This document shows, piece after piece, positions 4,736 through 25,916 of a DNA stretch of 26,225 nucleotides. This DNA is from a virus (Duplodnaviria > Heunggongvirae > Uroviricota > Caudoviricetes). The notes beneath the pieces were generated by a model. The model ran no database searches and was not told the origin of the DNA. It saw nothing but the letters and a program-made list of their open reading frames with translations. The stretch lies in IMG/VR virus record IMGVR_UViG_638341087_000002. One strand, given 5' to 3'. The translations under genes and the position numbers were made by a program. Position 1 is the stretch's first letter, and each line of letters opens with the position of its first letter.

Positions 4736-5416
4736 TCATCCCCGCCCGATAACCACCACTTTCCCGTCTCCGCCCTCATCACGGGTGCTGATGTCCTGGG
4801 ATATCCGTCGTGAACCAACCAGCATTTCACCATAAGGCACCGGCATAGGGTTACCCTGGGCAATCATATTGTCCAGCGACGAAAAATACGTGTTCTGTTT
4901 ACCGTTATCCGTTGCGCGGTAATCCGGTGTTTTTGCCTTCGGTGCCAGCATCTGGGCCACACCGCCCAGTATCATGCTGGCCCCCAGTGAGAACAGCATC
5001 GTGGTGGCAGTCAGCGCTCCGGCACTCAGGGCTGCGCCCCACAACGCCATCGTTGCGCCGGCGGTGAAGAAAGAGCCCACGATGGCTGCTGCCCCCAGCA
5101 CCACCTGAAAAACACCATTTCCCCCGGCCCCTGCCAGCCGCGGTACAATATGAATCACGGCCCTCCCGCTCAGTGGCTCATGAAGACGGGCATACACCGC
5201 CTCCGGCGCGGTATCCTCACCGGCAATACGTATCTGGTACCAGCCTTCGTTCATCTGACCGCGGAATCCCGGCATCTGCAGCGACAGGGCACGGATGGCC
5301 TCCGCTGCCGTGTTCACATACAGGCTGATGCGGCGACCAAATCGTTGTAAATCCCCGTGAAGGCAGATGCGGACCAGTGGCGGTGACGCCAGACAGAATG
5401 CGTTCGTCGTTGCCAT
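4736..5416 (-). CDS. I: Tail assembly protein I
   Basis: 226-aa ORF; strong similarity to lambda I as remembered (ARICLHGDLQRFGRRI..., ...KQNTYFSSLDNMIAQGN...GEM.VGSR...VVVIGR). Confidence 0.9.
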   Translation of the reverse strand: MATTNAFCLASPPLVRICLHGDLQRFGRRISLYVNTAAEAIRALSLQMPGFRGQMNEGWYQIRIAGEDTAPEAVYARLHEPLSGRAVIHIVPRLAGAGGNGVFQVVLGAAAIVGSFFTAGATMALWGAALSAGALTATTMLFSLGASMILGGVAQMLAPKAKTPDYRATDNGKQNTYFSSLDNMIAQGNPMPVPYGEMLVGSRRISQDISTRDEGGDGKVVVIGRG

Positions 5417-6057
5417 TTTTCGGAATACCTCTCCCGTTTACTCAGTTGTTCAGGCAGATGGTGAAGCAGTTCACCGTTGCCGCAGTAAATGGCAGCATGG
5501 TTGGGTACCGATGCGCCAAAGCAGCACAGCAGGATATCGCCTGCCTGTGCCGAGGACAGGGGCACCCGGTAAAAACCAGTGGCCTCCATATTGTCCAGGT
5601 AAAGGTTCTGACCGTTGCGCCACCAGTCATCCTCACGCTCAAAATCCGGCATATCAATTCCCGCCAGATGGTATGCATCCCGGAACAGCGTGTAACAGTC
5701 CGTCACCCCGTGCTCAAAGCGCCGTCCTGTCAGATGTGGCACACAGCGGAATTTATGAATGTCCCCCCGGCAGACCAGCCACCAGGNCAGTGCNCTTTTT
5801 ATCTGCAGCCGCCGGTCNGCCTCGCTCAGCCAGGGCAGNCCACCGGGATGACTGTGGACCAGTGCCACAATCTCCCCCTGCATCTCTGCCCGCAGCCAGT
5901 CTTCCGGTGCAATACGAAAATACGCCTCCGGCTCTGCAGAGATATTCACACANGGNANATACCGCTCCCCCTCCGGCGTTCTCACCACGAAGCCGCACGA
6001 CTCCGCAGGCACACACCGCCGGGTGTGTGCCAGAATCACTGATTCTGTCTGTGTCAT
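5314..6057 (-). CDS. K: Tail assembly protein K (NlpC/P60 plus JAB/MPN-type domains); contains ambiguous bases
   Basis: 247-aa ORF MTQTESVILAHTRRC...IVALVHSHPG...HGVTDCYTLFRDAYHLAGI... matching lambda K; overlaps the 5' end of I as in lambda. Seven N bases (5787-5958) give X residues. Confidence 0.85.
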   Translation of the reverse strand: MTQTESVILAHTRRCVPAESCGFVVRTPEGERYXXCVNISAEPEAYFRIAPEDWLRAEMQGEIVALVHSHPGXLPWLSEXDRRLQIKXALXWWLVCRGDIHKFRCVPHLTGRRFEHGVTDCYTLFRDAYHLAGIDMPDFEREDDWWRNGQNLYLDNMEATGFYRVPLSSAQAGDILLCCFGASVPNHAAIYCGNGELLHHLPEQLSKRERYSEKWQRRTHSVWRHRHWSASAFTGIYNDLVAASACM

Positions 6058-9775: not shown

Positions 9776-10533
9776 TCACAACCTCCTTCCCTCCTCCCCG
9801 AAACGGACTCCACCGGCGAGGCCCGCCGCCTTCTGCATCAGTACATCATTTTCGTCCGGCGTCTCCGCCTGTCCTTCCTCTGCCTCCGGAGCGAACAGGC
9901 TGAAATCCGCCGGATGCATATCCGGATCGCCAAAAAACAGGCTGAGTACGGCGTACATCAGCCCGGAAAAATGCATATCCAGCTGGGTATCCTGAAAATA
10001 ATGCGTGCAGTAAAAACGTCGCCAGTCGGCATATTCGGTGGATGTCATCCCGGCAAGCATGGCGCGCCAGTCGGGTCTCCCCATCTCTCGCGCCAGTTTC
10101 AGGACAAAGTTCAGCTCGCCTTCGAATGCTTTTTTGATGTTACCGGCTCAGTCGCTTCTGCTTTCCCGGTTTGTTCAGGATCGGCATCGTGCCGGTTATC
10201 CAGCATACCTGAAAGATAAAGCACCCGGTTCGTTGCCTGATTCAGTGCATCAGCAGGCCATCCCAGCATCACTTCACGGCGGATCTGCTGCATCTCTGTC
10301 TCCGGAGAGGCCAGAGTGCCTTTGAGGGAATGGGAATGCCATAGCGACATCGCCACAAGCAGGGATGCCGTTTCCAGATATCGCTGGTTAATGTGCACGA
10401 CATCATGCTTCGTTGTCTCCTGTTGTTCTGCGTCTGAAACAAACTTTATATAATCAAACCGCTGCAGCGCAGACAATTCGGAAAGCGTGACGGACACACC
10501 GTTATATTCAAATTGTTCTGTTTTCAGAAACAT
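9776..10533 (-). CDS. Tail assembly chaperone G-T fusion made by programmed -1 ribosomal frameshift
   Basis: The T ORF (9776-10084) is in the -1 frame relative to G; the -1 frame is open from 10147 down to the T stop; slippery heptamer A AAA AAG at 10129-10135 (minus strand) lies in the G/T overlap. Confidence 0.75.
10111..10533 (-). CDS. G: Tail assembly chaperone G (zero-frame product)
   Basis: 140-aa ORF directly downstream of the major tail gene; ends ...EPVTSKKHSKAS; contains the slippery heptamer near its 3' end. Confidence 0.85.
   Translation of the reverse strand: MFLKTEQFEYNGVSVTLSELSALQRFDYIKFVSDAEQQETTKHDVVHINQRYLETASLLVAMSLWHSHSLKGTLASPETEMQQIRREVMLGWPADALNQATNRVLYLSGMLDNRHDADPEQTGKAEATEPVTSKKHSKAS
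10129..10135 (-). other. -1 frameshift slippery heptamer A_AAA_AAG (G-T)
   Basis: Zero-frame codons TCA AAA AAG read directly from the minus strand; after a -1 slip the reading continues AFEGELNFVLKLAREMGRPDW... into the T ORF. Confidence 0.75.
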
Positions 10534-13031: not shown

Positions 13032-15011
13032 TCAGGCCACCGACGAACGCACCAGCCCGCGCCAGTCAAGTGGTGCCACTCCGGCATCAATACGGATTTT
13101 TGTGGCAATGCCGTCAGTGGTGAAACCTTCCTGCTGATCAATGTATGGCGTGTCCACACCATCCAGCCAGGCCACTTCAATGGTGTCAGTGCCCTGTGCC
13201 GCCGCCAGATACCAGGTTTTCGGGTCTGCCGCATCAAGACGCGCTTCTGCAATCACCTCAGCAAAGTTCTGGATAGGGTTAATGACACCGGCGTTTGCAT
13301 CCGCCCCTTTCACACTGGCCGATTTGATGGTCTGGTTCGCCACCGTCTCCAGTGCCACCGGTACCAGCATAAAGGCCGGACGGATATTCAGGGCACGATC
13401 GCCTTCTTTCTGCAGGCGCATCATCTGACGGGCCGCATCCAGTCCGGAAACGGAGATCCCCCCGGTGGCAATATTTTTGTGATCGGCATGGAACAGCGCC
13501 TTACCGTCGGACAGTTTCGGGTTATCCGTCAGCACCTTGTAGACCAGGTCACCAATCGTTGCCTTCGCCGCACGCCCCATCTTCATCGGCACGTCCACCA
13601 GCATATTCAGATCATCATTGATAATGGCCTGGCGGGTGATGGAGAAAATCTCCCCGTAAGTGGCCAGTGCAATGGTCTCCTTGCGATCTGAGGTGGTGAT
13701 GTATTTATACTCCGCCCCCTCACGAACCTGGCGCAGAGAACCAAAACCGCCCATCCCCACGCGATACGCTGTTTTGAAGTCTGACAGGCGTCCCTTACGG
13801 GTCCACTTCTGGAAGGTTTCTTCTGATTCCTCCCAGCCCTGGATCAGCCCCTTGTTCGACACATCCAGCAGAATATTGCCAAAATCAGAGGTGCTGTGCG
13901 TCAGCGCCAGCCCGACCATCTGCATGGGGTTATAACTGGCCACCCCAATACCGCGCTCCGTCAGTGACATGCGAGCCCATTCACGCAGGGTCATCCCGTT
14001 ATAGGCGTTATCCTTCTCGACATTTTCAAATCCGGCACGGGCCAGCATCGCCTGGCGGATCCCGTCCCCCACAAAATTGCCGTTTCCGGCATAAATATGG
14101 GCCGGTGTATTTTTGTTGGTCGGCGAGGACTCCTTGCCCATTTCATTCAGCAGTCGTTCACGGGCCATTTCCAGCGAACAGTCAGGATCAGCCACGCACT
14201 GTGCCTGAAGCGTCTGATAGCGACCGCCGAACATGGCAAACAGATCGTTAATGCCTGACATGCGGGCTTTCTGTTCTGCCATAACGCGGGCGCGAATGGT
14301 CGCCTCATCAGACACTGCCGGTACCGGTGATGGTTCTGTTACCGCCGGTGCAGGGATTGTCACTGTGGTATCACGCGGGGCACTGTTGCGTGGCGGAGTA
14401 ATCATGTTTCGGATGGATTCCGGCATCTTTTTAAATTCCTCTGTACGTTTTGACTGAATACATGCCATTGCCTCAACAGCGGGTGTCACCTGGTCAGCAA
14501 ATCCGTGTGCCAGACATTCGGCACCGGACATCCAGGTTTCATCCGCCAGCATGGCGGCAATTTCATCGGTGGTTTTTCCGGTTTTCTGCGCATAGGCTGG
14601 CAACAGTACCGATTCGACTTTATCCAGCAAATCGGCATAACTGCGCATATCCTCAGCATCCCCGCCACTGAATCCCCATGGCTTATGGATCATCATGAAG
14701 GCATTTTCCGGCATAATGACCGTATCACCGGCCATCGCAATCACAGATGCCATCGAGGCGGCAACGCCATCCACATACACGGTAATGGTCGCCCCCTGAT
14801 TTTTCAGGGCATTAAAAATGGCGATGCCTTCAAAGACATCGCCACCCGGTGAATTGATATGGAGATTAATGTGGGTGATATCACCCAGGGCATTCATATC
14901 GCTGACAAACTGCTTCGCGGTAACTCCCCAGAAACCAATCTCGTCATAAATATAAATATCTGCCTCACCCTGACTACCCGCCAGCATCCTGAACCAGGAT
15001 TTATTCTTCAT
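13032..15011 (-). CDS. Fused prohead protease (ClpP/S49-like) - scaffold - major capsid protein
   Basis: Track ORF 13032-15203; start moved to Met65 (MKNKSWFRMLAGSQ..., first base 15011) to avoid a 200-nt overlap with the portal gene. N-terminal ClpP-like protease region (IYIYDEIGFWGV...INSPGGDVFEG..IFNAL...ASMASVIAMAGD), Ala/Pro-rich linker, C-terminal HK97-fold-type capsid region. Confidence 0.8.
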   Translation of the reverse strand: MKNKSWFRMLAGSQGEADIYIYDEIGFWGVTAKQFVSDMNALGDITHINLHINSPGGDVFEGIAIFNALKNQGATITVYVDGVAASMASVIAMAGDTVIMPENAFMMIHKPWGFSGGDAEDMRSYADLLDKVESVLLPAYAQKTGKTTDEIAAMLADETWMSGAECLAHGFADQVTPAVEAMACIQSKRTEEFKKMPESIRNMITPPRNSAPRDTTVTIPAPAVTEPSPVPAVSDEATIRARVMAEQKARMSGINDLFAMFGGRYQTLQAQCVADPDCSLEMARERLLNEMGKESSPTNKNTPAHIYAGNGNFVGDGIRQAMLARAGFENVEKDNAYNGMTLREWARMSLTERGIGVASYNPMQMVGLALTHSTSDFGNILLDVSNKGLIQGWEESEETFQKWTRKGRLSDFKTAYRVGMGGFGSLRQVREGAEYKYITTSDRKETIALATYGEIFSITRQAIINDDLNMLVDVPMKMGRAAKATIGDLVYKVLTDNPKLSDGKALFHADHKNIATGGISVSGLDAARQMMRLQKEGDRALNIRPAFMLVPVALETVANQTIKSASVKGADANAGVINPIQNFAEVIAEARLDAADPKTWYLAAAQGTDTIEVAWLDGVDTPYIDQQEGFTTDGIATKIRIDAGVAPLDWRGLVRSSVA

Positions 15012-16503
15012 GCTGGCTGTCGGTGGCCTGCTGACGCTGTTGTTCAGTTCCGGCACTGTTGCCTCCTTTGTCGTTGACGGGGTCAGTATCAAAGACCAGC
15101 CCCAGTCTGCTGTTTTCATCAATTTCAGCCTTGCGGCGACGTTTGACCTCATCCGGATTGCGCCCACCGGCACGCACCCAGTCAGATTCTGTCGCTGCAC
15201 CACCCCGGATCTGAATTCTCCAGGCTTCAGCTTCCTTAACCGGGTCGATCCACGGCATCACCGGACCGGAATACGTCGCGTTATATAGCGTTTTCATCTC
15301 CACATCCGCCGGAATTTTCAGCAGACCTGCCGCAACCACCATATTCAGCCATGTCCGGTACACCGGGCGGGTTACCGCGCCAATAAAACAGTCCTGCAGG
15401 ATCAGGTAACCATCCGTGGACTCGACCAGCTCCTGCCGCTGGGCGCTGTAGGTGCCGTTATAGTTACGCGCCGCACTGGAAAAACTCAGACGACTGCCTG
15501 CTGCCACTGCACGCAACTGGCCGTTGCGGAAAGTTTCAAGGTTGGGATTGGGACGGTCAGATTTGACCATGCCGATATCCTCGCCCTTGCGCAAATCGTC
15601 ATAAATAATACCCGGGGTGATATGGACTTCCCGCTCGGTCTCTTTGCTCCCCGGATCTTCATAGTCCTGTCCGTCACCTTTACGGATATACAGTCCCAGC
15701 GCCGCAGCAATACGCGCCGCTGTCAGTTCCGCATCCTCATACTCCTTAAGGGCACTGATCCGCATCAGCACCCCCGATAACATGGATGAGCCTCGCGTCT
15801 GATGCAGACGACGAGTGAACTTCAGGTGGATCATTTTTCCGGCAGCGATTTCTTTCGTATCACTCTGCCGGCCGCTGACCGGATAATTTTTATAAACCAG
15901 ATATTTTTTCGGTCTTCCCCACTCATCAAGAAAAACCCCCTGATTCAGTCCGGCGGATTCATCAGTGCGCATGGGAACAAAATCCGGCTCCATCGCCTCA
16001 AGCCAGAATGGCACTCCCGCCGTCCGTTCCAGACCGTTTCCCGCACCACTGACCATCTGCGCAAACACTTCACCATCCCGCAGCCAGGTCCGCAGCAGTA
16101 AACGTTCAAGCACAGGACGGGTATACTGCCCTGTCACATCCGGACTCACGGACCATTCAGCCCACAAACGGCGGATATCCGCAGCCAGCTCAGCCGCCAT
16201 TTCCCCGTTTTTTCGTAATGGCTGAGGCTCCACAATAATTCCCCTGGCACCAATCACCCGCTCTTCCAGCTTGTCAAACACACCAATCACCAGGTCATGA
16301 TTGATATCCAGAAAACGGGCCTGCTCCCGCAGGGAAACCGCACCGTATTTACTGAGCTGATCAGCAGAGCGATTTTCCCGCCGGGCTTTATGTGTCCGGG
16401 TCGGTTTCACCGCCTCATAGGCCATGATTAACGCCCTTGAACGCAGTCTGGCTGCTTTCCACCCGGGGGAAAACACGCCGATCACATCATCAATAATTGC
16501 CAT
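15001..16503 (-). CDS. Portal protein (lambda B family)
   Basis: 500-aa ORF between the gpW-like gene and the protease-capsid gene; size and sequence character of lambda-family portal proteins; acidic, Gln-rich C-terminus. Confidence 0.85.
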   Translation of the reverse strand: MAIIDDVIGVFSPGWKAARLRSRALIMAYEAVKPTRTHKARRENRSADQLSKYGAVSLREQARFLDINHDLVIGVFDKLEERVIGARGIIVEPQPLRKNGEMAAELAADIRRLWAEWSVSPDVTGQYTRPVLERLLLRTWLRDGEVFAQMVSGAGNGLERTAGVPFWLEAMEPDFVPMRTDESAGLNQGVFLDEWGRPKKYLVYKNYPVSGRQSDTKEIAAGKMIHLKFTRRLHQTRGSSMLSGVLMRISALKEYEDAELTAARIAAALGLYIRKGDGQDYEDPGSKETEREVHITPGIIYDDLRKGEDIGMVKSDRPNPNLETFRNGQLRAVAAGSRLSFSSAARNYNGTYSAQRQELVESTDGYLILQDCFIGAVTRPVYRTWLNMVVAAGLLKIPADVEMKTLYNATYSGPVMPWIDPVKEAEAWRIQIRGGAATESDWVRAGGRNPDEVKRRRKAEIDENSRLGLVFDTDPVNDKGGNSAGTEQQRQQATDSQHEE

Positions 16504-16739
16504 TAAAACCTCGCCAGTTTAAATCCCGGTTTTCCCCGCCTGCGGCTCACCATCGCGGCAAGCCTGCGTTCCCACTCCTGACGTCCGGCGCGGATCTGAG
16601 AAAGGCTTTCCAGCGTCAGTTGCTGCCCGTTGAAGGTGACAGACTTTCCCTCCAGTACGGCCATTTCCGCTTCACGGTACCGCTGTATCATTTCTCTGGC
16701 TTCTTCTGTGCTCACAACCAGCCTCCTGATGTTATCCAT
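16503..16739 (-). CDS. Head-tail joining protein, gpW-like
   Basis: 78-aa ORF between terminase large subunit and portal, the position of lambda W; C-terminus RRRGKPGFKLARF resembles lambda gpW RRRGPAGFYV. Confidence 0.7.
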   Translation of the reverse strand: MDNIRRLVVSTEEAREMIQRYREAEMAVLEGKSVTFNGQQLTLESLSQIRAGRQEWERRLAAMVSRRRGKPGFKLARF

Positions 16740-18835
16740 GGATTATCTTCCGCACGCTCCGTCCGCAGTTTTTTCTTCCGGCGACGGCGTTTTTCTGCCC
16801 CGGCCGTCAGTTCCGGGGATACCGTTTCACCAGAACGCTCCTGCGGGAAGACGAGCCACGTTTCCCGCTGTGCCCAGTCCGGTGCGGAGGGCCAGCGGAT
16901 CTTTTCGTAACCATGCAGAACGGCAAGCGCATCCGCATAAACCAGCAGGTCAAACGCTTCGTTAGCGCCCCTGCCCGGTTTTCGCCATTTTCCGTCACTG
17001 CCGCGCTCTTCATAGGTCAGCTCATCGTAAAACCACCGCCCCAGCCAGTCGGGAAAGTGGATATAGTTCGGCCCTGGTGTGTCACGCCACAGGGCATTAT
17101 TTACACGGTCCTTAAACGCATCCGTCTGAACCAGCCACAGCGCGACATCGCCACTGGCTCTGGCACGGCGGGCACTTCTGCCGGTATTATCCGGGAAGGT
17201 TCGGTTAATCAGCCTGTCACGGCGAAGTCCATCCCCCTTGAACAGAAACACCCTGTTGCCCAGTCCGTCACTCCGGCAACGACGCCAGAAACGATAGGCG
17301 TTATCTGTCACCCCGGCTTCCCCTCCCGTATCCACCGCCATGGCCATCAGACGCATGCGCACATCCGGATCAGAAGCCAGCGGCCATGTTTTATGGAACA
17401 CATCCGTCAGCAACAAATCCCAGTCCTCCGGATATGCCGCCGGATCAACCGGCAGACTTTCACCGTTGGGACTGCATCGCAGTGAATGCCGGATGTTGTA
17501 GCGATCAACAATCCAGCGTTCCCCCTGCTCTCCGTATCCGGTGATCTGCACAACAAAACGGCGATTTTTACCGCCCTGTACGTCAACCGTTGCCTCAATA
17601 AAACGCACACCATCCGGCACAGATCGCCGGGGAAACGGCTCGGCACGCTGTTCAAGCAGTTCACTTTTACGCTGTTCCGTGGCTGAACGGGGCAGATAGG
17701 GTCGTCCGATATCGGTGTTCACCACCGCTTTCAGGGTCTCTTCACTGCCGGTTCGCTCATACTCTTCTTCTGCCGCCAGCAGTTTAAAAATCAGTTGTTC
17801 CCAGGTCTGAAACGCCGCAGCCGGCCCCTCCATCCAAAATGACGCAATCCGGGAGTTTCGTGGCGTTCCGGTGATACTGCCGTCCGCCGCCGCCCGTTCA
17901 CCTTCACGAAGCCAGATCCCCTGGTTATTCAGTTCGCGTTTCTGCTCAGGGGCAATCAGCCCGCGACAATGCGGACACATCAGACGGGCAGCCTGACCGG
18001 CAGCCACAAAATCCGGGTTATTCCGGTATCCGGTCATGTTATCCATCACCGGCTGAAAATATTCCCCGCAGTGCGGACACGGCCAGTACCACCGGCGGCG
18101 GTCTCCCCGGTTATACAGTGACAGGATACCCGTTGTTGGCGGTGCCTCATGTGCGCCACCACAACGCCATTTGGTATCGGTGATATCCCGCCCCGGTGAA
18201 CTCTCGACCAGGGTCATCCCCGAGGACATAAAGGTGGTGGTACGCTTTGAGGCCAGCGTGAAGGCATCCCCTTCCCCGTCCACGTTTTCAGGGAAACGGT
18301 CATAATCCGTCAGCGCCACACGACGGTAATCCGAAGAGGAAAAGACGGTGATCGACGGCCAGCCAATCTTCAGGAAGGAGCCGTCAAGAAACATTTTATC
18401 GTGGACGTTGTTGTCATTACGGGAAGGACTGAGGCGCTTGCTGACCTCCGGACTGTGGCGAAACGTCCTGGAAAGACGCGTTCTGGAATGCTCACGCGCC
18501 TTCGTCTCAGTCATCTGCACCACCAGCATATCCGCCGGATCACAGATGATGCCGTACACAATCCAGCCATCAATCAGCCCTTCGGTTTTCCCGGTTCGCG
18601 CAGGTCCCACAAACACCACCGCGTCATATTCACGGGCTGATAATGTATTAATGGGGTCAATCATATAGGGCGTCAGCGATGACTCCCACGGACCGGAAGT
18701 ATTGGCTCCCCGTGGAACCCGCATATAACGCCTGATGGCTTCCGCTACTGGTAACCGGCTGGGTGGGCGAAACAGCGAGGCCACTTCGCGCCAGATATCG
18801 GATGCGCGGCTATGGCTCTCGTTCACCTGATTCAC
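16712..18835 (-). CDS. Terminase large subunit (lambda gpA family)
   Basis: 707-aa ORF with Walker A-like VFVGPARTGKT and Cys motif CPHCGEYFQP resembling lambda A CPHCGEEQYL; overlaps the small subunit gene by 4 nt. Confidence 0.9.
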   Translation of the reverse strand: MNQVNESHSRASDIWREVASLFRPPSRLPVAEAIRRYMRVPRGANTSGPWESSLTPYMIDPINTLSAREYDAVVFVGPARTGKTEGLIDGWIVYGIICDPADMLVVQMTETKAREHSRTRLSRTFRHSPEVSKRLSPSRNDNNVHDKMFLDGSFLKIGWPSITVFSSSDYRRVALTDYDRFPENVDGEGDAFTLASKRTTTFMSSGMTLVESSPGRDITDTKWRCGGAHEAPPTTGILSLYNRGDRRRWYWPCPHCGEYFQPVMDNMTGYRNNPDFVAAGQAARLMCPHCRGLIAPEQKRELNNQGIWLREGERAAADGSITGTPRNSRIASFWMEGPAAAFQTWEQLIFKLLAAEEEYERTGSEETLKAVVNTDIGRPYLPRSATEQRKSELLEQRAEPFPRRSVPDGVRFIEATVDVQGGKNRRFVVQITGYGEQGERWIVDRYNIRHSLRCSPNGESLPVDPAAYPEDWDLLLTDVFHKTWPLASDPDVRMRLMAMAVDTGGEAGVTDNAYRFWRRCRSDGLGNRVFLFKGDGLRRDRLINRTFPDNTGRSARRARASGDVALWLVQTDAFKDRVNNALWRDTPGPNYIHFPDWLGRWFYDELTYEERGSDGKWRKPGRGANEAFDLLVYADALAVLHGYEKIRWPSAPDWAQRETWLVFPQERSGETVSPELTAGAEKRRRRKKKLRTERAEDNPWITSGGWL

Positions 18836-19308
18836 ATATCGGCCTCATCACAACAGTCAATGACTGCCTTTTCCAGTGTGTCGCGGATCTCATCAACCAC
18901 AATCTGTACTTCATTCAGTTGTGATGCGGTCCACCCCCTGTCCCTTTCCAGCCGGTCAGGCCAGGTTTCCAGTACCTGAACTATCGCTTTCACCACGACA
19001 GAAAAGGACCGCCTGACATCACTGACTGGCACAAGCTGACCAGTTTCCTGCTCAAATTTCAGTCGGTCACGTTCTGACTGGTACCATGCTTTACGCGCAT
19101 GAGGATCCATTTCCTTGTTATCTACAGGCAGAGGAGCTTTCATCAGCTCGGCAAGGATATCTGTCAGTCGGTACAGTTTGAGATTGCTCTCATGACCACC
19201 GGCTGGGCTTATGTTTTTTACCCGAGCCGCAACAGTCTGTCGATGAGCACCGGATAATGCGGCCAGTTGGGAAATATTCAGATGCAGATTTTTTAATTCA
19301 CGATCCAT
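18832..19308 (-). CDS. Terminase small subunit (DNA-binding, N-terminal HTH)
   Basis: 158-aa ORF immediately upstream of and overlapping terL; N-terminal HTH-like segment (LNISQLAALSGAHRQTVAARV); adjacent to an AT-rich region and a GC-rich cosN-like element. Confidence 0.8.
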   Translation of the reverse strand: MDRELKNLHLNISQLAALSGAHRQTVAARVKNISPAGGHESNLKLYRLTDILAELMKAPLPVDNKEMDPHARKAWYQSERDRLKFEQETGQLVPVSDVRRSFSVVVKAIVQVLETWPDRLERDRGWTASQLNEVQIVVDEIRDTLEKAVIDCCDEADM

Positions 19309-19974: not shown

Positions 19975-20442
19975 CTAGTTAATACACTGAGTGCGGATAT
20001 ATTCCTGCGCCCCTTCCAGCTGCTTCTGCATCATCATCAACCGTTCTCTGAGGATGAAATAATCCCGTTCAGCGGTGTCTGCCAGTCGGGGGCCGGTTGC
20101 ATTATCCACGCCGGAGGTGCCGGTGGCTTCACGCACGGTACCGTGGCAGGTGGCGTTGATCCGCAGGCGCTTACGACCAGCGGCAACATCAGCACGCAGA
20201 GTTTCATTTTCAGCTCTCGCATCGGCTAATTCCTTCGAGTATTTTGCATCGAGCGCAGCAACATCACGCTGACGCACCTGCATGTCAGTAATGGTGGCAT
20301 TCGCCTGTTCCAGCTCTCTGGCTTTTTTATCGCGCTGCGCTTTGTAGGTGATGGCGTTATCGCGGTAATGATTAACAGCCCATAACAGACAGACGATGAT
20401 GCAGATAACCAGAGCGTAAATAATCGCGGTTACTCTTCTCAC
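19975..20442 (-). CDS. Rz: Spanin, inner-membrane subunit Rz (i-spanin)
   Basis: Strong similarity to lambda Rz ([38 protein letters not shown]...[15 protein letters not shown]). Start set at the GTG at 20440-20442, which overlaps the endolysin stop codon (GTGA); the track's TTG at 20460 is an alternative. Confidence 0.85.
20037..20222 (-). CDS. Rz1: Spanin, outer-membrane lipoprotein subunit Rz1 (o-spanin), embedded in Rz in the +1 frame
   Basis: 61-aa [64 protein letters not shown] with lipobox LVVSAC and a proline-rich mature part; close match to lambda Rz1. Confidence 0.85.
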
Positions 20443-20972
20443 TGATCTATCCCCCAACAAGCTAATGCGCTTTCCTGGTCACGACGAATAACCTGTCCGT
20501 AGCAGTTATTTGAACGTGTGCGGCAATCACGCCCACCGTCCTTAATCCACCAGCGAATCGCCTCACACGCCCCCCTGCGATCGCCTGCATTAATTCGTTT
20601 ATAAAACGTCGACGGGAAACACTTACCTGGGCCAATGTTGTAAGGACAGAATGACGCAATACCCGCTTTCTGGGGTTCAGTCAGTGGCACTTTGATGTTT
20701 TTCTCCACCCATGCCAGCGCCTTATCACGCTCAATGGCGTTAACCTGGTCGCATTTCCCCTTCGACAGCTTCATGCCAGGAATAACAGGCTTACCATCCA
20801 CCCGGGTGGCTCCACGGCAGATGGTCCAGATACCCGCACCATCACGGTATGCCGTGGTGTGGTTGCCTTCCTTTTCATCCAGAAACTGGTCGAGGATTTC
20901 AGGCGCAGAAGCACCTGCGGCAATCAGCGCCAGAACGGCAGCCGATAAACCATAGCGGAGTTTCCTGCTCAT
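20439..20972 (-). CDS. R: SAR endolysin (T4-lysozyme family, glycoside hydrolase family 24) with N-terminal signal-anchor-release domain
   Basis: 177 aa; weakly hydrophobic Gly/Ala-rich N-terminus ([17 protein letters not shown]) followed by an E-x8-D-x5-T catalytic triad ([16 protein letters not shown]), as in the phage 21 and 933W endolysins. Confidence 0.85.
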
Positions 20973-20976
20973 CAGC

Positions 20977-21192
20977 TTACTCTCCCCGTGCCGCCTTACG
21001 CCTGTCCTCTCTGATTTTGAAATACAGGTTCGTCAGGTACGTCAGCAGACCAAACAGCAGACTCCCCAGCACGCCTATTGCCGCCCACTGAGACGGGGAA
21101 ACCCTGTCCAGCAACTGCAGGAACCAGTAGCCCGTTCCCACCGCTGACGTGGTGTATGACACACCTGTTGTGATTTTTTCCATCTGGTACAT
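20977..21192 (-). CDS. S: Class II holin (pinholin, S21-like) with dual start motif
   Basis: 71 aa [71 protein letters not shown]; essentially the S21/933W holin as I remember it; Met1 and Met4 suggest antiholin/holin dual starts; GGGAG SD upstream. Confidence 0.9.
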
Positions 21193-21268
21193 ACCCCGTC
21201 TCCCGCAATCCGGAAGCTCACAACATGAAAAAGGCCAGCAGCTGTTTACTGATGGCCCTGACTCCCCG

Positions 21269-21541
21269 TTACAGCATCATGACCGATTCGGGTTGAGGTT
21301 CAGTCGCATCGGCGACCGGTGATTCAGGCTGAACTTCACCGCTCTCTGCGGTGGTATCTCCCGCTTCAGTCGGTGGCTCTGCCTGTACACCAAGCAGCTC
21401 ATCCAGAATGGCATCAACCTCTGCATCAAGACGCGCTTCCAGGTTATGGCGAAGTTTTTGTTTCAGTGCACTCAGGACTTCTTCAGAGCGCAGGACTTCC
21501 TTCACTGCCTCAGCAGTGACCAGGGATGTAATTTCTGACAT
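21269..21541 (-). CDS. Hypothetical acidic 90-aa protein
   Basis: Internal ATG at 21539-21541 of the 148-aa track ORF chosen because the upstream part overlaps another plausible ORF; [51 protein letters not shown]... helical N-terminus, Glu/Pro-rich acidic tail. Weak SD. Confidence 0.45.
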
Positions 21542-21581
21542 GGGATTTTCTCGTCGAAAGGTGTGATTAAGAAAGTTGCCG

Positions 21582-21761
21582 CTAAATGAGCGGCTCTTCG
21601 GGTTTGCTTCCGGCTGACTGACTGGCGCTGATTTTCTCAGCGGCCCTTTTGTCAATCTGTCTGCGCCAGACGTCACGCATGGCCCTGTACCCACCCGAAA
21701 GGAGATACAGCACACAGACCACCGTACAGAAGTACAGCATTAACTGGTTCAGAAATGTCAT
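21582..21761 (-). CDS. Hypothetical 59-aa single-TM membrane protein
   Basis: ATG at 21759-21761 preceded by GGAAAG; MTFLNQLMLYFCTVVCVLYLLSGGYRAMRDVWRRQIDKRAAEKISASQSAGSKPEEPLI (hydrophobic N-terminal segment then basic region). Below the 60-aa cut-off of the supplied track. Confidence 0.4.
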   Translation of the reverse strand: MTFLNQLMLYFCTVVCVLYLLSGGYRAMRDVWRRQIDKRAAEKISASQSAGSKPEEPLI

Positions 21762-21896: not shown

Positions 21897-23843
21897 TCAT
21901 GCCGCAGTGTCTGTGCTGTTCACTTCCACCGCAATGCTGTCTATCAGTACCGGGTAAGTCGCACCTCTGGTAATGTCTGTCACATGCAGTTTATCCGCCG
22001 CAAAGGCACTGACCGGTGACTGCGTCAGCGTGAACGGTGTGCCATCCTGACCATCAATAACCGGCGTCACCTGCAGGCTGTTATTCCCGGCAAAGCGGAA
22101 AGCCAGCGTATGCCATTCGTTATCAAATGCGCCAAAGGTTCCCAGTTTCAGGTTGTTTGTCGCCACTTTCGCATTGTGGTACATCACATTCAGGTCTTTT
22201 GCATCTGTCTGGATGTAGAACGCTGCCAGCAGGTTATTCCCCCCGTCTCCGGTCAGGGCAACGCCCTGTGGCAGTGAAGATACCGGCCAGTAAAACGCCA
22301 TAACATACTGGTTCGCAGCCAGCNCTCCCGAAACCTTAAAGCGGCAGCGAATCTGCCCCCCTTTCTGTAACAGAGCCGCACCGTTGCCCGCGGCGTACTC
22401 CAGCACCCAGCTGCTTTTACCGGCTTCCTTGGTCAGCTTCACTGCCTTACCTCCGGTTCCCTCCGCATCGCTGACCACTTCTGCCCTGCCGCCACTGGCT
22501 GACCATCCCTGTACTTTCAGGCTTCCCTCTGACTCGCTGGCAAGGTAAGAGAGCAGTGTTGTGACGCCTGTGGCTTCTGCACCGGAAGGCGATGACGGGC
22601 GCACCTCTGATACTGTCGATGATGCCCCCGCGTTTAGCGCCACTCTTCCCGCATGGCGCAAAATCGCCGTTGCCAGACGGTCGGAAATAATCCCGCGGCG
22701 AGCCCATGAACTGAAATGGCTCGCCCTGTCCTGTGACGTCCAGGTGGCTGAGCTGTCACGCCATTTCGAACCGTAATATCCGATACCCGGAATGTCCGGG
22801 TCTTCTTCCGGTTTGTTCGTCGGCACATTCACCCCGTTCTCATCCGTCATGAACGGTACGAAATGGATATTCTTTTCCGTTTTGTTTTTGTAGCTGCCGT
22901 ACACCGTCTGGTACGTGGATTCGTTCTTCTGCTTCCAGAAATACGTCGTATCTCCACATATCCAGGGAACACCGCCAGCAGAGCCNCCGACGCACTGACC
23001 TGCCATATCCGCCAGGTCTGCACGGAATTTATCAACCAGCGCACCAAACTGTGCTGCGTGATTTACCGGCGTACCGCCAAAATCAAATTCCCCCTGCATC
23101 CACNCCACGGCAAACAGCACATTTTTCGGGTTCTTCTTCAGTGCTGCTTTTGTTCGACCGATAAGGTCCTTATACAGCGGCTTGTCCACACCCCAGCGGG
23201 TTGAATTCTCCGAGGCACCACTCGCGTCACTGTATGTGCCATCAGCTCCGGTGGTGAACGCTGAACCACCACGACAGCACGGAACCAGCAGAATGCCCGC
23301 ATTCGCCGGTATAAACGGCAGCAGTTTTTTGGCGATATGCAGCCCCTGCCCCACGGTTCCGTACTGCCCCTTTGACAGGTCCGCTTTCGGATGGTTAAGG
23401 CGGCTCATGTCCTGCACATCATGCAGACAATGGTCCGCCGGAATGATGTCGTTATATTTACAGGCGACACCGCCCGGTGTCACCGTACTGCGACGCGCCA
23501 GCTGCTTAATGCGCAGGTCCGGACGGTCATATGTCTCCGGCAGCGGAAGGCCTTCACCATATGCCATGCTGTTTGACTGCCCCGCCAGAACCACAACAAA
23601 GTAATACTCCGGGTCTCTGGTGGCGCTGATTACTGTGCCTTCTCCATCCGACGGCTTCACCACAACAGGTGTGCTCACATCACCTTCTGCGACAATCGCC
23701 TGAATAAGTGCTGCGCCATCATCCGTATACGAAGAAAACGGCCCGCCGTATGGTTGCCATCCTTCACGAATTTTTTGAGCAAGTGCATCAGCAAGGTCTG
23801 ACGGCGACACCGCCCTGACCACATCATAATGTTTAATCGACAT
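21897..23843 (-). CDS. nanS-p: Prophage sialate O-acetylesterase NanS-p-like (SGNH/SASA hydrolase core with N- and C-terminal accessory domains); contains ambiguous bases
   Basis: 648-aa ORF; GQSN-type motif (VLAGQSNSMAYGEG) characteristic of sialate O-acetylesterases; size and location (between the tRNA/toxin locus and the holin) match the yjhS/nanS homologue of Stx phages. Three N bases (22325, 22986, 23104). Confidence 0.8.
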   Translation of the reverse strand: MSIKHYDVVRAVSPSDLADALAQKIREGWQPYGGPFSSYTDDGAALIQAIVAEGDVSTPVVVKPSDGEGTVISATRDPEYYFVVVLAGQSNSMAYGEGLPLPETYDRPDLRIKQLARRSTVTPGGVACKYNDIIPADHCLHDVQDMSRLNHPKADLSKGQYGTVGQGLHIAKKLLPFIPANAGILLVPCCRGGSAFTTGADGTYSDASGASENSTRWGVDKPLYKDLIGRTKAALKKNPKNVLFAVXWMQGEFDFGGTPVNHAAQFGALVDKFRADLADMAGQCVXGSAGGVPWICGDTTYFWKQKNESTYQTVYGSYKNKTEKNIHFVPFMTDENGVNVPTNKPEEDPDIPGIGYYGSKWRDSSATWTSQDRASHFSSWARRGIISDRLATAILRHAGRVALNAGASSTVSEVRPSSPSGAEATGVTTLLSYLASESEGSLKVQGWSASGGRAEVVSDAEGTGGKAVKLTKEAGKSSWVLEYAAGNGAALLQKGGQIRCRFKVSGXLAANQYVMAFYWPVSSLPQGVALTGDGGNNLLAAFYIQTDAKDLNVMYHNAKVATNNLKLGTFGAFDNEWHTLAFRFAGNNSLQVTPVIDGQDGTPFTLTQSPVSAFAADKLHVTDITRGATYPVLIDSIAVEVNSTDTAA

Positions 23844-23919
23844 CGAATTTCTCCCGTGTAGAGGAACAGAGTTAAAAAGCCGGAAGCGGAATCAAATCAC
23901 AGGATGACCATCTGCCAGT

Positions 23920-23948
23920 GGCTGGTCGTAAAAAAAAGGCCGCGCCAT
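23920..23948 (-). terminator. Candidate intrinsic terminator upstream of nanS-p
   Basis: Minus strand GGCUGCGC-AUG-GCGCGGCC (one G-U wobble) followed by a U8 tract; about 80 nt upstream of the nanS-p start. Confidence 0.5.
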
Positions 23949-24157
23949 GCGCAGCCGAAAATAAAGGGATAACGATGATAGTTTGAGAAAAACAGAAATA
24001 ACACTTTTGTGGCAAAGCATGGTGCCGGGTGCCTCCCGGTGAATTCAGTATCAGCACCTGAATCCGCGATTACCCCATATTCCTTCTTGCTGATTGCCCC
24101 ACCGCACAGGGGGATTCACCATGCAGAAGTGTTTTTAATAAACAGCAAACAAAAAAA

Positions 24158-24325
24158 TCAAGCATTATGCAGGCTGTTTCTTTTTATCACCGGCCACAGC
24201 AATACCATAATGCCGCAGACCAGCACCCCATCCGCCAGCACCGACATGATTCTGCTGGTGAAATCCACCATCACCACCAGAAACAGCAGGAGTGCAGCCA
24301 CAGCCAGGCGCAGTTTTACCGTCAC
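24158..24325 (-). CDS. Hypothetical 55-aa two-TM small membrane protein, start codon overlapping the TerB-like stop
   Basis: GTG at 24323-24325 overlaps the TerB-like stop (GTGA) with GGAG 8 nt upstream; VTVKLRLAVAALLLFLVVMVDFTSRIMSVLADGVLVCGIMVLLWPVIKRNSLHNA has two hydrophobic segments. Not in the supplied track in this frame. Confidence 0.3.
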   Translation of the reverse strand: MTVKLRLAVAALLLFLVVMVDFTSRIMSVLADGVLVCGIMVLLWPVIKRNSLHNA

Positions 24326-24753
24326 AGGTGATTCTCCAGACGAAGACCCAGAACACCGGCAATCTCTTCCAGCACCTTGCGCTCTTCCGGCTCAATTTCG
24401 CCGTCTGCCTCCGCAATGGCCACCGCCACATCCAGCACATCTTCCGCTTCACGCGTATCGTGTTTCACATCCTCAATCTCGCGTAACGCGGCACGACGAC
24501 CAATTTTAAAATTGGTATCCAGCTGACCGATAATAGTTGCGCTAATCGCATTAATTTCCGAGGTAAACGCAGACAACGCAGGCTGATTACGTAAGACCTG
24601 TTCGATCTTCGCTTTCTCGGATGCCTCGCATTCACCATCTGCATAGGCCACCAGGTATGCAGCGTTAATCACCGCCTGTGCCAGATCGCGTTTCTCAAAC
24701 TTTTTAATTTCCGCTGCCGCTCTGCGGGTTTTCTTTTTGAAGATTCCAAACAT
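24322..24753 (-). CDS. TerB-like domain protein (tellurite-resistance TerB family fold), 143 aa
   Basis: ATG at 24751-24753 with AGGAA SD (track ORF starts at an upstream GTG). Two repeats of the TerB-type motif: AYADGECEASEKAKIEQVL and AEADGEIEPEERKVLEEIAGVLGL. Confidence 0.55.
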   Translation of the reverse strand: MFGIFKKKTRRAAAEIKKFEKRDLAQAVINAAYLVAYADGECEASEKAKIEQVLRNQPALSAFTSEINAISATIIGQLDTNFKIGRRAALREIEDVKHDTREAEDVLDVAVAIAEADGEIEPEERKVLEEIAGVLGLRLENHL

Positions 24754-24884
24754 CGTGACGTTCCTTTGGGTGGGTGAGCCAACGCCCGGGAGCGATCTGC
24801 CCACAGAGAAAGTCACACTGACCACTCCGTAAGCTCACCCCCGAAAGGCTCTGTGGTTGATATGCGCCGGGCGTGGCGCAGATA

Positions 24885-24909
24885 CAAAAAAGGCCCGCCG
24901 AAGCGAGCC
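24885..24909 (-). terminator. Intrinsic terminator downstream of the tRNA cluster
   Basis: Minus strand GGCUCGC-UUCG-GCGGGCC (UUCG tetraloop, one G-U pair) followed by UUUUUUG, about 14 nt after the last tRNA. Confidence 0.6.
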
Positions 24910-24922
24910 TGGAAAATAAGTG

Positions 24923-24999
24923 TGGCGCGTTGTAGTGGAGTCGAACCACTGACCGATTGCTTAGAAGGCAATTGCTCTGTCCGACTGAGCTAACAACGC
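24923..24999 (-). tRNA. argN: tRNA-Arg (anticodon UCU, reads AGA/AGG)
   Basis: Hand-folded cloverleaf: acceptor GCGTTGT/ACAACGC, D-arm GCTC..GAGC, anticodon stem ATTGC/GCAAT with loop CTTCTAA, T-arm AGTGG-TTCGACT-CCACT, discriminator G, encoded CCA. Confidence 0.8.
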
Positions 25000-25012
25000 A
25001 TGATGCTGATAA

Positions 25013-25089
25013 TGGACCGCCATCGGGGACTTGAACCCCGCGCAGCCAGCTTCGAAGGCTGGCGCTCTGTCCCGATGAGCTAATGGCGG
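25013..25089 (-). tRNA. argO: tRNA-Arg (anticodon UCG, reads CGA/CGG); atypical C1:G72 and U73
   Basis: Hand-folded cloverleaf: acceptor CCGCCAT/ATGGCGG, D-arm GCTC..GAGC, anticodon stem CCAGC/GCTGG with loop CTTCGAA, T-arm CGGGG-TTCAAGT-CCCCG, encoded CCA. Gene symbol assigned by position only. Confidence 0.65.
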
Positions 25090-25098
25090 TATGTGATA

Positions 25099-25174
25099 TG
25101 GTGGCCCTTGCTGGATTTGAACCAGCGACCTGGCGATTATGAGTCGCTCGCTCTCACCACTGAGCTAAAGGGCC
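25099..25174 (-). tRNA. ileZ: tRNA-Ile2 (anticodon CAU, lysidine-type, reads AUA)
   Basis: 76 nt GGCCCTTTAGCTCAGTGGTGAGAGCGAGCGACTCATAATCGCCAGGTCGCTGGTTCAAATCCAGCAAGGGCCACCA; near-identical to E. coli ileX/ileY as remembered; anticodon loop CTCATAA. Confidence 0.85.
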
Positions 25175-25202
25175 GAGCCAAAAAATAATAATCAGATGAA
25201 AA

Positions 25203-25916
25203 TCAATAATCAAGCCCTTGCCTGGATACATATCTGTCTGGCGGGAAGCCATAATAGCGGTGAAATACAGAAATAAAGTAGGACCTGCTTGAATAACCGC
25301 ATTTTTCTGCTATAGCCTGTCCATATCCATGCCGGGAACATAACATATTTACAGCAACACGCATCCGCTCTTCCAGCAACAAGCGACTGAACATGCCCCC
25401 TTCATTTTTCAGTTTTGTCTTTAACAAACTCTCACTCATATGCAACTGTAGAGCAATCGCACCAAGCGTCCAGCTTGCTGATATATCTGTCTGAATTATC
25501 GCCCTGACTTTGGCACTTATGCTGGATAAACATCCACTTAAAAACAATGACATCCGTTCATCTGTTTCAAACAGAGACAGGCAGGCCATCATAAGAAACA
25601 TATCCGTGGCCTCTCCGGAAAATCCCTGGCTGGTAATTAAAGCCGCAGCCAACGCAGGATTGTTGGGTTCCAGCAACAGGTAAAGCGGAATGTCAGTCAG
25701 ACGAGTCCTCGTCAGCTTATGCTGACTTTCCAGATATTGACTTACGACGGATTCGCTTATATCGACAATTTTAACTTTGCCATAATGCATAAGGAAAAGC
25801 TCCCTGATGCATTTGGTGGCCAGAACGACTGAGCCTGGCTTAAGTGACAACGTATCCTTTTCAAGAAAAATATTAATTGGGGAGCAAACCATGATAACTG
25901 AACAGACAACAGCCAT
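25203..25916 (-). CDS. AraC/XylS-family transcriptional regulator (prophage cargo gene)
   Basis: 237-aa ORF with C-terminal AraC-type double HTH (WTLGAIALQLHMSESLLKTKLKNEGGMFSRLL.EERMRVAVNMLCSRHGYGQAIAEKCGYSSRSYFISVFHRYYGFPPDRY). Start uncertain (Met1 at 25916 or Met9 at 25892; neither has a strong SD). Confidence 0.8.
   Translation of the reverse strand: MAVVCSVIMVCSPINIFLEKDTLSLKPGSVVLATKCIRELFLMHYGKVKIVDISESVVSQYLESQHKLTRTRLTDIPLYLLLEPNNPALAAALITSQGFSGEATDMFLMMACLSLFETDERMSLFLSGCLSSISAKVRAIIQTDISASWTLGAIALQLHMSESLLKTKLKNEGGMFSRLLLEERMRVAVNMLCSRHGYGQAIAEKCGYSSRSYFISVFHRYYGFPPDRYVSRQGLDY

Follow-up and report, generated by a model that had tools for sequence, protein, structure and literature searches.

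The 26,225-nucleotide virus record IMGVR_UViG_638341087_000002 (hereafter the window, meaning this whole stretch of DNA) is the entire contig AAJV02000052.1 (GCA_000167855.1) from the draft genome of E. coli E22, and its minus strand carries nanS-p (21897..23843), a gene for a predicted sialate O-acetylesterase, with no Shiga toxin (Stx) genes beside it. We conclude with high confidence that nanS-p is present here as an intact allele and is a regular late-region gene of lambdoid prophages. A sequence-only reading of the window had treated the gene as a hallmark of Stx phages and its occurrence without stx as something to be accounted for, and it is this view that has to be given up. Among 5426 complete E. 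coli genomes, 1027 contain nanS-p-like DNA, at 2878 places in all (median 3, maximum 8 per genome). The best matches among these genomes (99.2%) include strains annotated O55:H7, presumably an enteropathogenic E. coli (EPEC) serotype without stx. A homologue is also found in phage 434, and nanS-p is known in non-Stx prophages (PMC10462455). Thus, nanS-p without adjacent stx is an already known, published and indeed majority situation that needs no special explanation, and the gene should be taken neither as a marker of Stx phages nor as evidence of past toxin carriage. A scan of GTDB species representatives returned 7 loci only, in E. albertii, a further Escherichia species, Proteus faecis and a pair of metagenome-assembled genomes, and brought nothing new.

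The open reading frame (ORF) of nanS-p begins with ATG and runs for 648 codons, and its 648-residue product bears the GQSN motif at residues 88–91, within VVVLAGQSNSMAYG, as the sequence-only reading had reported. Pfam recognized DUF1737 (PF08410; residues 4–53, 41.3 bits), SASA (84–279, 40.2 bits) and DUF6645 (492–610, 246.9 bits), each exceeding its curated cut-off. A search of the protein against NCBIfam gave no meaningful match; Pfam, PDB and near-identical characterized homologues sufficed to establish its identity. The N-terminal DUF1737 domain occupies residues 1–55 (23679..23843, minus strand) and includes a variable loop at about residues 33–47 that allele comparison assigns to type A. 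It is followed by an esterase core of the SGNH type (residues 74–396; 22656..23624, minus strand), which aligns to the NanS/YjhS structure 3pt5 with E=2.5e-115. In this alignment Ser90, His376 and Gln89 coincide with Ser19, His301 and Gln18, the two catalytic residues and the oxyanion residue of NanS (PMC9063846). Gln89 and Ser90 belong to GQSN and His376 to a RASH sequence, and both correspond to SGNH block motifs described for NanS-p (GQSN; RASH/RSSH with the catalytic His; PMC10462455). The C-terminal lectin-like jelly-roll domain, which contains DUF6645 (residues 426–643; 21915..22568, minus strand), equals PDB entry 6yp6 chain A ('NanS-p') at every determined residue, one codon being ambiguous. 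Four aromatic residues of this domain have been proposed to bind sugar (PMC10462455), and Y513, Y518, Y543 and F614 are kept in the window protein. Overall identity is 92% to vb_24B_21 (gp84) of phi24B and 91% to L0105 (Z1466) of 933W. With its three domains, its SGNH blocks, its identity to characterized members and its late-region location, the protein is a member of the NanS-p family on each feature examined, in agreement with the earlier assignment. Activity on Neu5,9Ac2 and on the O-acetyl groups of mucin is predicted from the near-identity of its catalytic core to published active alleles.

Exactly three ambiguous bases lie inside nanS-p, at 22324, 22986 and 23104, out of 10 in the whole window; the count of three given earlier was correct. 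The codons concerned are 247 (GNG, encoding V, E, G or A), 286 (GGN, always Gly) and 507 (GNG, encoding V, E, G or A), so that a stop codon is impossible at all three, and no catalytic residue is touched. The idea that nanS-p is a pseudogene was checked through these codons and rejected, since none of them can be a stop.

The place taken by stx in Stx phages is filled by other genes in the window. Searches of the window by tblastn gave a best E value of 0.08 with Stx2A and no match with Stx2B, in line with the earlier statement that it holds no toxin genes, and a location of nanS-p just downstream of stxAB, also stated before, was seen in the Stx phages compared. Homology to 933W covers window positions 25178–24875 and 23856–21805. 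Between these two blocks 933W has stxA2B2, whereas the window has a slot (23857–24874) that contains a TerB-family gene (24322..24753, minus strand; 143 residues from the start annotated in locus L001, and a 100% match to WP_000466957-type TerB) and a gene for a small DUF3927 membrane protein (24158..24325, minus strand; annotated in L001 and, as 'TciB', in phage 434). The left boundary of the slot, after the tRNA terminator, is shared with 933W. When the 933W stx region was compared with the window by blastn, the only matches were the tRNA cluster, nanS-p and two short patches 3′ of stxB, which correspond to window DNA downstream of DUF3927. In a Stx-converting phage, stxA and stxB would lie between the tRNAs and nanS-p, an arrangement thus not found in the window. 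The content of the slot is a cassette replacement at a single position; nanS-p looks like part of the phage backbone, and stxAB like one of a set of exchangeable cassettes that can occupy the stretch from the tRNA terminator to nanS-p. The same TerB-DUF3927 slot precedes a frameshifted nanS-p in the O103:H2 enterohaemorrhagic E. coli strain 12009 (L123 7258–9107). This strain had been expected to carry the E22 prophage, an expectation ruled out by the frameshift and by a large terminase of about 642 residues (an H3-type size, in the head classification given below) against 707 in the window.

The sequence-only reading had left two histories side by side, a lineage that lost stx or one that never acquired it. 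In the former case the window would descend from a Stx phage minus its toxin genes, with nanS-p left over, and we regard this as unlikely. It is true that ASU11, Stx2_KH16-043, L043 and L082, which share the head module and DUF1737 type of the window, have stx2 directly upstream of nanS-p, that the anchor-loop region of the gene is 100% identical in DNA to that of ASU11, and that the tRNA cluster and terminator share 95% identity with 933W. However, the slot is filled by two intact genes with clean boundaries and no scar, tblastn detected no remnant of stx in the window, and the tRNA-TerB-DUF3927-nanS-p junction, counted when covered at 80% or more, is common to 637 of the 5426 complete genomes. 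The patches shared 3′ of stxB fit a cassette replacement in either direction and give no preference to loss, and E22 is described as EPEC without stx. A phage that never acquired stx, as the earlier proposal also allowed, or that carries another cassette therefore fits better.

The allele itself is a DNA mosaic. Nucleotides 76–320 of nanS-p (window 23524–23768) are 100% identical to the Stx2d phage ASU11 and 57–61% identical to 933W, whereas the last 947 nucleotides (1001–1947; window 21897–22843) are 100.0% identical to both 933W and phi24B. The variable segment at nucleotides 76–165 (window 23679–23768) corresponds to the capsid-binding loop of the phi24B DUF1737 domain. In phi24B, gp84 is a proteolytically processed protein that decorates the capsid, and electron cryo-microscopy places its DUF1737 domain at the centre of the capsid hexon, bound via a loop with Tyr42 (preprint 10.64898/2026.04.10.717836).

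Variation in this loop was compared with the head genes over 48 related loci with readable flanks, drawn from IMG/VR prophage loci, phage genomes and the window (45 lineages after dereplication). Further IMG/VR scans with phi24B and type C queries returned mostly repeat loci and added at least about 25 loci. Head modules were recognized mainly by terminase, portal and prohead protease, since the 10-kb flank frequently ended before the capsid gene. The loop falls into three types, A (that of the window), B (phi24B and 933W) and C (three residues shorter), and the head modules are of four kinds: H1 (the window), H2 (phi24B, with Pfam Phage_capsid_3), H3 (canonical lambda, with gpA, gpB and an S49 protease) and H4 (HK97-like). 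The pairings were A/H1 in 12 loci, B/H2 in 12, C/H3 in 14, C/H4 in 7, C/H1 in 2 and B/H4 in 1, such that type A occurs with the H1 module only. A strict one-to-one rule was rejected, as type C is found with three head types and L001, L054 and L097 are exceptions. We expressed as an area under the curve (AUC) how well the pairwise similarity of a segment predicts a shared head module. For nucleotides 76–165 of nanS-p the AUC was 0.89 with respect to head genes about 5 kb downstream, a value reached by 0 of 500 label permutations, whereas the upstream flank, the esterase body and the lysis-gene DNA 2–5 kb downstream gave 0.53–0.57; over about 10 kb, no other segment predicted the head module. 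In an earlier set of 37 loci, the DUF1378, DUF826, holin, lysozyme and Rz proteins gave 0.47–0.53, and a single cluster of esterase bodies (at least 97% identity) was found with all four head types.

The stx/TerB cassette, a non-homologous neighbouring island, showed no one-to-one pairing with head type: over the 48 loci, stx1, stx2, TerB or neither precedes nanS-p in every DUF1737 type, and each head type shows three of these four states. Within nanS-p the loop is encoded on the side facing away from the head genes, and the DNA in between is shuffled; together with the unpaired cassette, this makes simple linkage a poor explanation. The window gene illustrates the pattern, its loop being that of a phage with the same head (100%) and its 3′ half that of 933W (100%), a phage whose esterase and late region are phi24B-type. 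The sample is nonetheless small and in part clonal. Type C accepts several head types, three further loci depart from the pattern, and some of the signal could be imitated by short-patch gene conversion that homogenizes only the segments that are conserved. With slightly less than even confidence, we therefore put forward that the DUF1737 loop is co-adapted to the head module, and that NanS-p may be a capsid-bound virion enzyme also in long-tailed prophages with lambda-like, HK97-like or ClpP-fusion heads, that of the window among them. In that case nanS-p would count as a structural late gene kept for the phage's own benefit in mucus, which would explain its persistence with or without stx; temperate phages of E. 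coli would widely bear the esterase as a decoration of their virions, and its interpretation would shift from a conversion gene of benefit to the host towards a phage tool in mucus.

In the explanation preferred here, the esterase core would employ Ser90 as nucleophile, Gln89 as oxyanion residue and His376 as base, and by homology its substrates would be 5-N-acetyl-9-O-acetylneuraminic acid (Neu5,9Ac2) and the sialoglycans of mucin, from which it would cleave O-acetyl groups. Prophage nanS-p alleles of EDL933 and O104:H4 encode active esterases that allow growth on Neu5,9Ac2, and EDL933 has seven or more active alleles (PMC8065619). In the window the gene would be part of the late transcript, downstream of the tRNAs ileZ-argN-argO, and its place there behind two terminator-like hairpins suggests that expression most likely follows from Q antitermination after induction. 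Inspection of NanS-p by eye revealed no obvious signal peptide, for which reason the protein would leave the cell at lysis, free and probably also virion-bound. Lysogens that survive could then use the de-O-acetylated sialic acids, and the phage may find it easier to bind to mucus or to pass through it. We infer the expression and release steps from synteny and published work on 933W-type phages.

Several points weigh against this picture of an intact late gene whose product is anchored to the capsid. Anchoring is known from phi24B only, which is short-tailed and has a capsid of T=9 geometry. BLAST found no similarity between the head proteins of the window, capsid included, and those of phi24B. 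In place of the Phage_capsid_3 partner of phi24B, the window encodes a fusion of a ClpP protease with Phage_capsid_4. The phi24B 'tooth' residue Tyr42 aligns to Asp42 in the window protein, whose loop is differently composed with a Tyr at position 39. Codons 247 and 507 may each encode V, E, G or A, and codon 247 adjoins the conserved WMQGE block. Indirect support for hexon binding and processing is offered by the co-variation of loop and head module; of two SSP motifs, the second (RPSSPSG) is conserved and the first reads STP. Neither the Q gene nor the late promoter is on the contig, leaving synteny as the basis for late-operon control, and the contig stops within the prophage, which bears on inducibility. 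For this particular allele we also infer enzyme activity, the mode of expression and release, and association with the capsid.

An alternative natural substrate, in place of host sialic acid, would be an O-acetylated polysaccharide of the bacterial surface (O-antigen or capsule), the removal of its acetyl groups aiding access of the virion to its receptor. This possibility has been raised in a review (PMC8065619); it would suit the phi24B homologue being a virion protein, and the co-variation of the DUF1737 loop with the head module fits such a virion-borne role. We nevertheless consider it improbable, because there is next to no difference from the 933W and phi24B proteins in the catalytic core and the lectin domain, because the 933W enzyme and other EDL933 alleles are reported to hydrolyse Neu5,9Ac2 and the O-acetyl groups of mucin (PMC8065619), and because the core is closely homologous to chromosomal NanS; the two substrates are not mutually exclusive.

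Least credible is that nanS-p is an inactive relic of a decaying cryptic prophage with defects masked by ambiguous bases: frameshifted copies are known, for example in O103:H2 strain 12009, truncated ones occur in loci L069 and L107, and the contig holds 10 ambiguous bases, but the frame is open across all 648 codons and equal in length to the ASU11 copy, the three N-bearing codons are unable to encode stops, the residues for catalysis and sugar binding are intact, and the lysis, head and tail genes of the window are likewise open and of normal length.

The surroundings of nanS-p are those of a lambdoid late region. Since the prophage extends past the window at both ends, Q, the early region and the end with tail fibre and cargo belong to other contigs. 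Read along the minus strand, the elements come in the order AraC-type helix-turn-helix gene, tRNAs, hairpin, TerB, DUF3927, hairpin, nanS-p, DUF1378, DUF826, S, R, Rz and terminase; the location of nanS-p between Q/tRNAs and the lysis cassette follows the gene order of 933W, phi24B and ASU11. The tRNA cluster ileZ-argN-argO (24923..25174, minus strand; anticodons CAT, TCG and TCT according to ARAGORN) and the terminator-like hairpin after it (24891..24910, minus strand) show the 95% identity to 933W mentioned above, the hairpin being homologous to the 933W 'possible terminator upstream of the stx genes'. The second hairpin, just upstream of nanS-p (23938..23956, minus strand), resembles an intrinsic terminator with its T-run and was identified by pattern scan only. 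The lysis cassette downstream (19975..21761, minus strand) comprises DUF1378, DUF826, a P21-type holin S, lysozyme R and Rz by Pfam. Upstream of the tRNAs, the AraC-type gene assigned by Pfam (25203..25916, minus strand) sits between the late-promoter region and the tRNAs, a place held by a DNA methylase gene in ASU11 and in the prophage of O103:H2 strain 12009. E22 itself belongs to EPEC serotype O103:H2 (AAJV00000000; PMC2974192) and serves as a rabbit EPEC strain, from which a derivative expressing stx2 was obtained by lysogenization with 933W (PMC8727911).

The H1 head module (13032..19308, minus strand) contains a DUF1441 small terminase-like gene, the large terminase, head-tail joining and portal genes and the fusion of ClpP protease and major capsid protein; its terminase is gpA-like. 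A Phage_cement_2 gene (PF09956; 12618–12944) stands directly after the fusion gene, and the H1 head type therefore seems to have a cement protein of its own, independent of any contribution from NanS-p. The tail is lambda-like, with tape measure, J and Lom. Within the tail region, Phage_TAC_2 (140 residues) and Phage_tail_T (94 residues) ORFs lie side by side at 9776–10533, a pair that we take to resemble the lambda G/GT tail chaperones with their programmed frameshift. The seven other ambiguous bases of the window, at 5787–5958, fall inside ORF 5314–6057 (247 residues); its called product had no Pfam match, and from its position among the tail genes we read it as a lambda K-like tail protein.

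A close homologue of the esterase core on the E. coli chromosome is NanS (YjhS; 3PT5), the window's NanS-p being encoded by a prophage. The two have homologous SGNH type II esterase cores with conserved Gln-Ser and His catalytic residues; however, the 337-residue NanS chain aligns to residues 74–396 only and thus lacks the N-terminal DUF1737 domain and the C-terminal lectin-like domain. The NanS-p proteins of 933W and phi24B have the same three domains as the window protein and the same place upstream of the lysis cassette, and from about residue 107 to residue 648 they are essentially identical to it. They differ in the DUF1737 loop region and the linker, where the window has another allele (56.7% DNA identity over nucleotides 76–165) with a linker three residues longer, and the phage of the window is long-tailed and lambda-like, with a capsid protein that has no BLAST similarity to that of phi24B. 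Closer in these respects are ASU11 (Stx2d) and Stx2_KH16-043 (Stx2a), which have type A DUF1737, the length of 648 residues and the head genes in common with the window, their large terminase being 100% identical wherever visible. In contrast, both have stx2 in the slot where the window has TerB and DUF3927, and ASU11 has the methylase gene upstream of the tRNAs in place of the AraC-type gene. Phage 434 is one of the classical lambdoid phages and has no stx; in the corresponding place, between Q and the holin gene, it carries a SASA esterase gene with the DUF3927 ('TciB') gene upstream. Its esterase of 616 residues is 53% identical to the window protein, with a shorter, divergent body and a type C-like DUF1737 domain, and the gene (L110 12001–13851) lies within a region annotated as non-homologous with 434B.

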